A stretch of 64,000 nucleotides of DNA from Candidatus Altimarinota bacterium (lineage in GTDB: Bacteria > Patescibacteriota > Gracilibacteria > CAIRYL01 > GCA-016699755). Of the stretch, positions 42,606 to 49,725 are shown one piece after another (the first letter of the stretch is position 1; each line of letters opens with the position of its first letter). The notes beneath the pieces were generated by a model that was given only the letters and a program-made list of their open reading frames with translations, was not told the origin of the DNA and searched no databases. Where the stretch lies: NCBI GenBank assembly GCA_963664295.1, contig OY760935.1, positions 1,088,001 to 1,152,000 of the forward strand, read 5' to 3'. The position numbers and the translations under genes were made by a program.

Positions 42606-42634
42606 AAAAAGCGATTAAAATCAGGTCGCTTTTT
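42606..42634. terminator. bidirectional terminator
   Basis: AAAAAGCGATT...GGTCGCTTTTT. Confidence 0.6.
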
Positions 42635-43583
42635 ATTTTAATAAGCTTAATAAATCCTCACCCAACTCCGCCTCCAAAACAATTTTCTTCTCAGTCTCCG
42701 GATGAACAAATTCCAATTTTTTCGCATGAAGAAACTGCCTTTTTAAACCAGTTTTTTTGCGCATTGTCTTGTTCCATTCAAAATCACCATGCTGAGAATC
42801 CATCAAAACCGGATGACCCAAATTAGCAAAATGCACCCTTATTTGATGAGTCCTGCCAGTTTGAATCTCCACTTCCAACAAAGAAAAATCAGCAAATTCC
42901 TTAACAAGTTTATATTTAGTGATAGCAGTTTTTGCCTCTCTTTTTGTTGAAACCCGCACTCCACTGTGATCACGCAAAATTTTATCCGTAATAATCCCAG
43001 ATTTTTCTTTTAATTTTCCTTTTACAGCAGTGTAGTAAATTTTTTTCACACCATCACCGCGTAAAAGAGCAGTTACTTTTCGTAAAGCACTATTGTTTTT
43101 ACAAATAATCACCAAGCCAGAGGTATCTTTGTCCAACCTATGTGCCAATCGTGGTTCAGGTGTATCAGAATTATTCGCAAGAACATAAGCACAAGCAAGG
43201 TCAATTAGATTTTGACCAAACTTGGTTCCACTTCCCGGATGCACAGCCAATCCAGCAGGCTTGTTCACAACCAACAAAAAGTCGTCTTCAAAAATAATTT
43301 TAAAATTTTTTTTATAAAAATTAGATCCAAAAATAGCTTTAAAATCAGGTTTTTTAAGATCAGGTTTTTGCTCATTTACAGCTAATTTACCAAGAAAAAC
43401 CTTGATATTATCTCCAATTTTTAAAATTTGTTCTTTTTTTGCAGGTTTATTGTTGATTTTTACTTCTTTTTTACGGAAAAGTTTATAAATCAAAGAAAGT
43501 GGAAAATCTTTAAATTCTTTTTTTAAAAAACGGTCAATTCTTTGCCCTTCGTCGTTTTTTGTGATCTTAAATTCCTTAATCAT
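42633..43583 (-). CDS. RluA/RluC-family pseudouridine synthase with S4 domain
   Basis: GQRIDRFL, NKPAG, HRLDKDTSG, TGRTHQIRVH. Confidence 0.93.
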   Translation of the reverse strand: MIKEFKITKNDEGQRIDRFLKKEFKDFPLSLIYKLFRKKEVKINNKPAKKEQILKIGDNIKVFLGKLAVNEQKPDLKKPDFKAIFGSNFYKKNFKIIFEDDFLLVVNKPAGLAVHPGSGTKFGQNLIDLACAYVLANNSDTPEPRLAHRLDKDTSGLVIICKNNSALRKVTALLRGDGVKKIYYTAVKGKLKEKSGIITDKILRDHSGVRVSTKREAKTAITKYKLVKEFADFSLLEVEIQTGRTHQIRVHFANLGHPVLMDSQHGDFEWNKTMRKKTGLKRQFLHAKKLEFVHPETEKKIVLEAELGEDLLSLLK

Positions 43584-43678
43584 AAATAAAATAATCGAGG
43601 GAATTTTAACTTATTTTTCAAAAAAAAGCTTGCTTTTGGCAGTTTTTTTGGTTAAATTATGCAAGCTGATTATTTTTT

Positions 43679-43755
43679 GGGCGCGTAGCTCAGTTGGCTA
43701 GAGCATCTCGTTTACACCGAGGAGGTCGGGGGTTCGAATCCCTCCGCGCCCACCA
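43679..43755 (+). tRNA. tRNA-Val(TAC)
   Basis: TCTCG-TT-TAC-AC-CGAGG; GGTTCGAATCC; CCA. Confidence 0.96.
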
Positions 43756-44078
43756 TTTAAAAACAATTCATGCGAAGCATGGATTTTTTTTAAATTATGA
43801 CACAGGATTGAACCCCCGACCTCCTATCTAATTAAAAAGTCGGGGGTGTTTTGAAGCGGTTTGTTTTTGCAAAGCAAAACAAAAAGCGGAAAACGAATCC
43901 CTCCGCGCCCACCATTTAAAAACAATTCATGCGAAGCATGGATTTTTTTTAAATTATGACACAGGATTGAACCCCCGACCTCCTATCTAATTAAAAAGTC
44001 GGGGGTGTTTTGAAGCGGTTTGTTTTTGCAAAGCAAAACAAAAAGCGGAAAACGAATCCCTCCGCGCCCACCATTTAA
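43735..44078 (+). repeat. 159-bp tandem repeat (2 full units plus a third copy of the tRNA 3' end)
   Basis: CGAATCCCTCCGCGCCCACCATTTAA starts at 43735, 43894 and 44053; intervening sequences appear identical. Confidence 0.95.
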
Positions 44079-44153
44079 GATTTTATTATTTTATTTGATG
44101 TTTAATTAAAAAATTTTAAAATAAAATAAATTAAAAATATTTAATTACAAATT

Positions 44154-44642
44154 ATGAAAAAATTTACACTATTACTGTTAACAGTATTGTTTTTAACAGC
44201 TTGTATAAACCAAAAAGAGCCGATTTTTAAGGAAATTATCATTGGTGAAGAAATTTTTGGAGATTACCCAGCAGTACTTTTAAATTTGCGCACCGGTGAA
44301 ACAATAAAAATATCAAACAATTTTACAAAAGAAGCTGGTGAAATAGATGCAGACTTGTGGATTGAGCCAGGTGATCCAGAAATTGCTTGCCTAGAAGATG
44401 GCTTTGAGGACAAAGAACACAAAGGAGAAGACACAAAGCTAAAAGTAATTGGAGATAGTTTTGGAAATATTAGCCTCAATTCTGTAAAAAATATTCAATT
44501 AACAGACAATGACATAAGCAGAGATGATATTATAGAAGGTGTAGTTTTTGTTGTACAAGCAAGCGATAAATCATTATATAAAGTGCAAGCTGATTTTTTC
44601 CCTTTTGACGAGGAAATAAAAATAAAATATGAAAAATTGTAA
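44154..44642 (+). CDS. hypothetical lipoprotein
   Basis: lipobox FLTA-C. Confidence 0.7.
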   Translation: MKKFTLLLLTVLFLTACINQKEPIFKEIIIGEEIFGDYPAVLLNLRTGETIKISNNFTKEAGEIDADLWIEPGDPEIACLEDGFEDKEHKGEDTKLKVIGDSFGNISLNSVKNIQLTDNDISRDDIIEGVVFVVQASDKSLYKVQADFFPFDEEIKIKYEKL

Positions 44643-45475: not shown

Positions 45476-45483
45476 TTTTCATT

Positions 45484-45563
45484 GGGGGCTCACGTCGCCC
45501 CCCTCAGTGGCAAAGCCACTGAGCCTCCCCCCTCTCGCTCGCGCAAGCGCTCGCTATTTTTTT
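45484..45563. repeat. GC-rich multi-hairpin element
   Basis: GGGGGC..GCCCCC, CTCAGTGGC-AAA-GCCACTGAG, GCGC-AA-GCGC, then a T run. Confidence 0.6.
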
Positions 45564-46525: not shown

Positions 46526-49521
<2,996 letters not shown>

Positions 49522-49609
49522 TTGAGTTAAACAGATCTCCGAAATCTTGTTTGACGGGCAATCTTTGAGAATTTTAAAATTAATTGATATCAAATATTTG
49601 AGTATATAA

Positions 49610-49725
49610 TCCTGGTGCTTACTGCGGAGGGGGTACACCTGTCTCCATTTCGAACACAGCAGTTAAGCCCTCCAGCGCCGATGGTACTTGGGAGTAAGCC
49701 CTGGAAGAGTAGGTCAGCGCCAGGA
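49610..49725 (+). rRNA. rrf: 5S rRNA
   Basis: TCCTGG...CCAGGA stem; CCATTTCGAACAC; GCCGATGGTACT; GAGTAGG. Confidence 0.95.

Follow-up and report, generated by a model that had tools for sequence, protein, structure and literature searches.

Gene-less cassettes built from tRNA pieces behind tRNA genes of a Gracilibacteria genome: candidate non-autonomous insertion elements

The tRNA-Val(TAC) locus and its repeat

The window considered here is a stretch of 64,000 nucleotides of contig OY760935.1 from a Candidatus Altimarinota bacterium. The genome that holds it, referred to as G000, is closed, with 1,215,430 bp, 33.5% G+C and 38 tRNA/tmRNA genes. An intact tRNA-Val(TAC) gene in the window is followed by two copies of a 159-bp unit, and the features of the locus are as follows.

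42633-43583, minus strand: RluA-family pseudouridine synthase, the upstream neighbour, outside the element
43679-43755, plus strand: intact tRNA-Val(TAC), the target (ARAGORN; Rfam RF00005, 70.9 bits)
43756-43795, plus strand: unit 1, terminator-like hairpin with a C(GAA)G triloop and T8
43805-43825, plus strand: unit 1, antisense arm, of which 43810-43825 is the exact complement of tRNA nt 42-57
43826-43838, plus strand: unit 1, linker (TAAT; conserved AAT motif in alignments), the loop of the antisense/sense hairpin
43839-43847, plus strand: unit 1, 9-nt sense copy of tRNA nt 47-55 (T-stem 5' strand)
43848-43893, plus strand: unit 1, 46-nt hairpin replacing tRNA nt 56 (T-loop), Flavo-1-like, with a C(AAA)G apex
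43894-43914, plus strand: unit 1, 21-nt copy of tRNA nt 57-77 with CCA
43915-44073, plus strand: unit 2, identical to unit 1 (antisense 43964-43984, sense 43998-44006, insert 44007-44052, tRNA 3' copy 44053-44073)
44154-44642, plus strand: 162-aa ORF without an NCBIfam match, the downstream neighbour, outside the element

The first-pass annotation had described a 159-bp repeat linked to tRNA-Val and composed of a hairpin with T8, an antisense piece, split sense pieces and an insert of about 46 nt, and all of these parts are present where it placed them. The GAA-triloop hairpin proper occupies 43765-43785, with eight T at 43784-43791, and terminator-like sites number six in 43550-44200 as opposed to 0.7 in shuffled sequence. 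The reverse complement of 43720-43735 is identical to 43810-43825, as annotated, and the preceding bases (43805-43809) prolong the arm across the T-loop with one base missing. The Val units contain neither a gene nor the remnant of one, and no promoter-like site was found inside them. An intron-containing tRNA-Leu called by ARAGORN on the minus strand over the units results from the antisense arm, and vanishes when the intron option is left out. Further along the window, 23S and 5S rRNA genes lie at 46527-49725 while the 16S gene is apparently near 569 kb of the genome, leaving the rRNA genes unlinked.

The tandem array (43735-44078) has a period of 159, 2.2 copies and 100% identity. In two runs of one sample, possibly the source of the assembly itself, read depth over the unit was 17.8 against 11.8 in the flank and 24 against 12.7 (1.5x and 1.9x), which fits two copies, sustains the annotated tandem of two identical units and rules out an assembly artefact. 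A run from another study (X5) yielded a 188-nt contig of depth 3.8 that spans the unit junction (43786-43973) while the flanking genes are uncovered, and this contig may come from a longer tandem in a rare strain or from a free circle. A chance origin of the antisense matches is ruled out by comparison with mismatched pairs. Exact matches of at least 9 nt within 200 nt downstream occur in 8 of the 38 pairs of a tRNA with its own trailer versus 77 of 1406 mismatched pairs, and those of at least 12 nt in 3 of 38 versus 3 of 1406.

The locus is predicted to fold, with z-scores of -8.1 as RNA (43679-44078) and -6.8 as DNA (43679-43914). Folded alone, as DNA or RNA, the Val unit gives the terminator and a three-way junction in which CTCCT is left unpaired in a loop. 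Predictions that include the tRNA have the arm invading the T-arm, with a gain of 12.6 kcal/mol as RNA, where the arm-to-T-arm fold of a tRNA-plus-unit transcript is compared with a fold in which the T-stem is enforced, and of 7.2 kcal/mol as DNA.

Related units at other tRNA genes

The annotation had proposed scanning other tRNAs for similar units with tRNA-specific antisense parts, and the same architecture does recur. Units with the layout of the Val(TAC) unit are called type A here, and a sister layout resembling the Escherichia coli RtT repeat is called type B. In G000, type A is found at 8 of the 38 tRNA/tmRNA genes, namely Val(TAC), Ile2, Ala(TGC), Lys(CTT), Lys(TTT), fMet, Pro and tmRNA. 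Two copies are present at Val(TAC), two plus a truncated third at Ala(TGC) and three at Lys(CTT), while the Pro and tmRNA copies are truncated. The relative genome G004, which belongs to a different genus of the same family and is 99% complete with contigs that break at tRNAs, carries type A at Val, Ile2, Ala(TGC), Ala(GGC), fMet and tmRNA. Matches to model R2 in G000 all lie behind tRNA genes (10 of 10), with none dispersed elsewhere. By manual reading of the G000 tRNA loci, type B stands behind eight further tRNAs (Gly GCC, Gly TCC, three Ser, Arg GCG and two Gln), and all seven copies of a 14-nt type B core word in the genome are distributed over six different tRNA genes. A copy of the tRNA 3' end of at least 12 nt occurs within 200 nt of 16 of the 38 genes.

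Other modules of G000 break up the anticodon or D loop, or lie upstream as mirror-image duplicates of tRNA 5' ends. Tandem units of the latter kind precede three Ser genes, fMet, Leu(GAG), Tyr and Gly(GCC) (L109, L112, L115, L117, L120), and in some of them the anticodon stem is also present in antisense. The trailers of Phe (L054), Glu CTC (L119), His (L061) and Lys CTT (L108) hold tandem units of 80-85 bp together with a 220-bp unit, in which the antisense arms face the D-arm or the anticodon arm and a loop is replaced, that is, the same design applied to other loops. A CGTC-tagged hairpin module at 45476-45560 of the window and at six other sites lies directly behind the CCA ends of tRNA/tmRNA genes or their copies; it has no closing duplicate, and all seven copies are at tRNA genes.

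The range of type A is narrow. A pattern search of 401 genomes of the class found it in G000 and G004 only, model R1 was positive in 2 of 150 class genomes, and model R2 gave four weak outside matches in 150 genomes of the phylum, none at a tRNA 3' end; both models were trained on G000 and G004, and diverged forms may escape them. A search of 38 relatives of G004 returned G004 itself alone. Among 100 loci around GIY-YIG genes and tRNAs there was one match (E 0.5), a collection of genome contigs gave five matches, none with a tRNA, and a viral collection gave 13, all of them chance or reversed tRNA text. BLAST against phages and plasmids returned zero type A matches, and the type B core is absent from viral contigs. 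In the literature searched, in which subscription papers are thinly covered, the type A layout was not described.

The antisense arm is matched to its tRNA. The helix of antisense and sense parts is 91% paired over 11 distinct units, and 4 of 8 pairs are changed on both sides, with the alignment fitted to the model and both the fitting and the relatedness of the units inflating this covariation. In the 15 elements compared, the arm agrees with its own tRNA at 5.5 of 6 variable positions, as opposed to 3.5 for other tRNAs, and it extends into the variable loop by a mean of 2.7 nt versus 0.9 nt for the unit's own sense copy. At tRNA-Ala(GGC) of G004 (L132:1578-1679) the arm is an exact match to the present tRNA across nt 46-61, whereas the two sense pieces correspond to a different allele, resembling the one in genome G002; it is possible that the arm was re-templated there. 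In this unit the arm begins 3 nt behind CCA, without a terminator. The arm corresponds more closely to the intact tRNA than to the sense copy of its own unit, as expected of a guide, which makes the intact tRNA sequence its partner.

Several features point to movement of the units. Among the 10 inserts compared, identity reaches 82% between G000 Ile2 and G004 tmRNA and 72% between G000 fMet and G004 Ile2, but it is only 46% between the Val inserts of G000 and G004 and 68% between their Ala inserts. At Lys(CTT) of G000, two units that differ at 1 of 132 nt flank an unrelated D-loop module, an arrangement that slippage between neighbours cannot make in one step, and the same unit is also found at tRNA-Lys(TTT), 421 kb away. 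Unlike modules are stacked at already-occupied tRNAs at Lys CTT, Ser GGA and G004 Val. The distal end of tRNA-Ala(TGC) in G004 remains joined to a serine-recombinase tail, and in genome G001 this tail abuts an intact tRNA; the distal copy is therefore the older one, and the cassette entered ahead of it. With this polarity, the 3' copy in unit 1 of the Val locus (43894-43914) is likely the displaced end of the host gene. Inserts that are independent of their target, stacking and a displaced old end argue for inserted and retargeted cassettes as opposed to plain slippage. The five targets common to G000 and G004 (Val, Ile2, Ala TGC, fMet and tmRNA) also fit old vertical inheritance, and neither a circle, an empty site in a close strain nor a copy-number series was seen.

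Known systems and candidate enzymes

The closest likeness is to the 178-bp RtT repeats of E. coli tyrT/tyrV (rttR; RF00391). Both these and the Val units are gene-less tandems behind a tRNA gene, with an antisense tRNA piece, a sense T-loop piece, an insert hairpin with a GNA triloop and a CCA-ended 3' copy, and the core words of RtT align with those of the type B units at the eight G000 tRNAs. The RtT antisense piece faces the 3' strand of the T-stem, whereas that of type A faces the variable loop, the T-stem 5' strand and the T-loop; the RtT 3' copy begins at about nt 59, whereas type A has the TAAT linker and a 9-nt sense piece. Unlike RtT, the type A design is retargeted to many tRNAs. The RF00391 model, whose Rfam gathering threshold is 45 bits, found no match in 43600-44200 of the window (E<=5), in 20 loci (E<=0.05), or in G000 or G004. 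The family is real, structured and target-matched, and can be regarded as a variant of RtT-like tRNA-linked repeats.

Genes for tRNAs are the main entry sites of foreign DNA, and tRNA islands of the tyrosine-integrase type cross over in the T-loop and leave a duplicated tRNA 3' end. Like tRNA-targeting integrative elements, the Val units have a duplicate of the 3' end starting from the T-loop, a restored gene with a terminator, and stacking at one site. Unlike tyrosine-integrase islands, they have no integrase or cargo and do have an internal antisense arm, and their duplicate starts at nt 56-57 as opposed to the start of a 7-nt loop overlap. Such an island was rejected, as there is no integrase in or beside the element, though the 21-nt copy of nt 57-77 is present. 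The annotation's remark that no integrase is nearby is borne out, since the sole PF00589 (tyrosine recombinase) gene of G000 is Xer-like and lies about 26 kb off, outside the window.

Integron attC sites, CTX phage attP, IS200/IS605 ends and REPINs are folded single-strand attachment sites or guides. The cassettes would share with them a single strand that folds to a duplex site with an extruded hairpin, and non-autonomous spread by an enzyme acting in trans. Unlike these sites, the cassettes come with no IntI, Y1/RAYT or dif target, carry an arm of 16-21 nt complementary to the target, and occur at tRNA/tmRNA genes only. A REP/REPIN-RAYT system or an IS200/IS605 MITE was rejected because there is no Y1 HUH transposase and the copies are not dispersed, an IS110/IS1111 bridge-RNA element because PF02371 is absent from G000 and G004, and a retroelement because PF00078 (reverse transcriptase) is absent from G000. 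Profile searches of the G000 genome also found no DUF559. The annotation had suggested looking for a co-occurring HUH or tyrosine recombinase, and G000 has no Y1 transposase and no fitting tyrosine integrase.

The T-loop insert shares with Flavo-1 (RF01705) purine-rich internal loops of the form GAAG-GG ... AGCGGA. It scores 20.6 bits in the Val unit and 29.9 bits in the tRNA-Ala sister, against a gathering score of 42 and over model positions 13-65 only, and 149 genomes of the phylum gave no other match. The part of the source available lists Flavo-1 as a candidate RNA of Bacteroidetes, without a stated function (PMC2864571). In sum, the cassettes resemble RtT-type repeats and folded-strand attachment sites, yet they fail membership in RtT, Flavo-1, integrase islands, REP/RAYT and IS110.

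G000 also harbors small GIY-YIG genes. At about 482720-483400 (L022:1456-2100, minus strand), two 321-bp tandem units lie upstream of tRNA-Pro, each with a broken tRNA-Pro copy, consisting of a tRNA 5' piece and a palindrome that replaces the anticodon arm, and a GIY-YIG gene of 82 aa. Among the best 80 of 461 metagenome relatives of this gene, 75 lie at most 250 bp from an ARAGORN tRNA call and 74 are on the same strand; these counts include redundant loci and calls that fall on the broken copies. Like the Val units, these units combine duplicated tRNA pieces, a hairpin in a loop and a tandem arrangement, and they occur in the same genome; unlike them, they contain a gene, seldom have an antisense arm, and bear a GC palindrome in the D, anticodon or T loops of their tRNA pieces. 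The GC palindrome is found in one type B unit of G000 but not in type A, and the Val unit was not classed as a tRNA-resident GIY-YIG unit, having neither the gene nor the palindrome. The solved structures (PDB) closest to the GIY-YIG profile belong to UPF0213 proteins and to SLX1, which cuts branched DNA. No small GIY-YIG gene was found in the G004 assembly, although cassettes are present there. A second small GIY-YIG gene of G000 (about 622400-622900; L024:1250-1800) is flanked by GTCA-tagged REP-like palindromes, and similar palindromes lie behind tRNA-Ile.

Serine recombinases (PF00239 and PF07508), which a non-autonomous derivative of serine-recombinase tRNA islands would call for, are absent from G000 and present in G004. 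From 24 matches in relatives, 20 regions were examined, and 17 of them terminate within or beside a tRNA gene. The recombinase genes there are large and run antisense into the 3' end of the tRNA (G002, G004, G010 and others; L323, L324, L325-L342), and their tails often have a sense T-loop-like word 30-100 nt behind CCA. In up to 20 kb behind the 17 islands, no distal end with a T-loop hairpin, the type A structure, was found, and most islands had no detectable distal end.

Interpretation of the cassettes

The best-supported reading, with a probability of roughly one half, is that the repeat is a gene-less, guide-bearing cassette built from pieces of host tRNA, a non-autonomous insertion element of tRNA genes. 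The annotation had suggested such a mini-element, and the matched architecture at other tRNA genes speaks for it. The cassette would move as a folded single strand of DNA, its antisense arm would serve as a guide to the T-arm in a tRNA gene, and cutting and joining would be performed by an enzyme encoded elsewhere. In the lone fold, the arm would pair with both sense pieces in the three-way junction, while the bases able to pair with the variable loop of the tRNA would stay free and could serve as a toehold for invasion of the target. Entry would occur at about nt 56-57 of the T-loop, and the cassette would bring a terminator along with a fresh 3' end for the tRNA, and shift the old end downstream. 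Tandems may then arise by re-insertion at the restored site, or by recombination between the tRNA-end repeats of 21-26 bp.

An alternative, which appears unlikely overall, is an RtT-like RNA module that spreads by local recombination only. Read-through transcripts would be processed to structured RNAs that end in CCA, or the arm would adjust tRNA maturation by changing the fold of the pre-tRNA. The predicted gain of the arm-to-T-arm fold as RNA agrees with this, as do the folding signals, which are all on the transcribed-sense strand, and the resemblance of the insert to the candidate RNA Flavo-1. The E. coli tyrT repeat, with its sister layout, is also in its favor. In the part of the source available, the RtT repeat is reported as a processed RNA, and rtT RNA is tied to tyrT processing with an unknown mode of action (10.1101/2024.07.17.603846). 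Against an RNA module, the terminator-like hairpin and T8 precede the arm and the units lack a promoter-like site. It also leaves unexplained why inserts are common to different tRNA genes, why modules stack and why truncated copies are distal. The same considerations apply to the two RNA roles that had been annotated. For a cis-antisense switch, the folding permits it but the antisense arm lies behind the terminator; a single unit cannot by itself fold into a tRNA-like RNA with a CCA end, as it has no acceptor 5' strand.

The hairpin loops bear on the choice between DNA and RNA, with counts that are inflated by repeated modules. In the 38 trailers, C(RNA)G triloop hairpins number 28 on the tRNA-sense strand and 5 on the other. 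Triloops exceed tetraloops, a point that also tells against an RNA module: triloops number 37 against 11.6 in shuffles and tetraloops 10 against 11.6, and the triloop:tetraloop ratio is 30:6 in tRNA trailers versus 21:21 behind 286 ordinary protein genes. C(RAA)G hairpins with a stem of at least 6 lie within 1 kb of a tRNA/tmRNA gene in 26 of 40 cases, a zone that makes up 6.6% of the genome. According to the available part of one source, only GNA triloops give an extra-stable DNA mini-hairpin, and r(GCGAAAGC) melts at 39 C compared with 76.5 C for DNA (PMC13037366). DNA is therefore favoured for C(GAA)G (8 loops), but not for the commoner C(AAA)G (16 loops). A wobble test of strand-specific pairing gave 9:2 against 117:48 among available bases. 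Five elements are co-directional with replication and three head-on, and with such mixed orientation the folding strand is not set by lagging-strand exposure. Because the arm sits behind the terminator, the analysis leans toward a function as DNA rather than RNA.

A role that benefits the host seems less probable again. The arm would act as a shield, sequestering the T-arm in unwound DNA from tRNA-targeting recombinases or nucleases, the interrupted copy would act as a decoy that absorbs them, and the units would spread by transformation and recombination at tRNA homology. The tRNA genes of this order are indeed heavily targeted, as seen in the serine-recombinase regions at tRNA ends and likewise in the GIY-YIG units; the cassette-rich G000 is free of serine recombinases, and the arm tracks the intact tRNA. 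Modules nevertheless still stack at the occupied Lys CTT, Ser GGA and G004 Val genes, so that protection would be weak at best, and G004 holds both cassettes and recombinase islands, though the intact islands are at different tRNAs. The least probable reading, that the units are passive scars without present function, left by shrunken recombinase islands, template-switch inverted copies and minisatellite expansion, would account for the att-like duplicate of the tRNA 3' end, the truncation of the copies at Pro and tmRNA and of the third Ala unit, and the very narrow range of type A, but it is at odds with a fixed five-part layout with compensatory changes at nine different target genes in two genera, with the 17 islands, among which no end of type A structure was found, and with the lack of a gene remnant in the unit; the covariation has already weakened it.

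If the units are inserted cassettes, the enzyme that cuts and joins them is tentatively sought in the small SLX1-like GIY-YIG nucleases of the tRNA-resident kind, the leading candidate at less than an even chance; the missing palindrome in type A, the rarity of antisense arms in the GIY-YIG units and the G004 assembly count against it. Some other enzyme, or host recombination alone, would be a serious contender, and a large serine recombinase of the tRNA-targeting islands a rather unlikely one. In its boldest and doubtful form, the cassette reading would describe a reprogrammable, DNA-guided insertion in which a single-stranded cassette of 100-190 nt picks its tRNA gene with a caged arm that is rewritten upon a change of the target allele, an 82-residue structure-specific nuclease cuts and joins, and the 50-year-old RtT of E. 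coli is a stranded member of the class.

About half of the tRNA genes in a streamlined genome of 1.2 Mb carry target-matched, gene-less cassettes. If the arm is a guide, these would make up a targeted insertion system of a minimal kind, and its candidate enzyme is tiny. In either case, the natural covariation series that the cassettes provide makes the unexplained RtT of E. coli testable as a DNA element versus an RNA.
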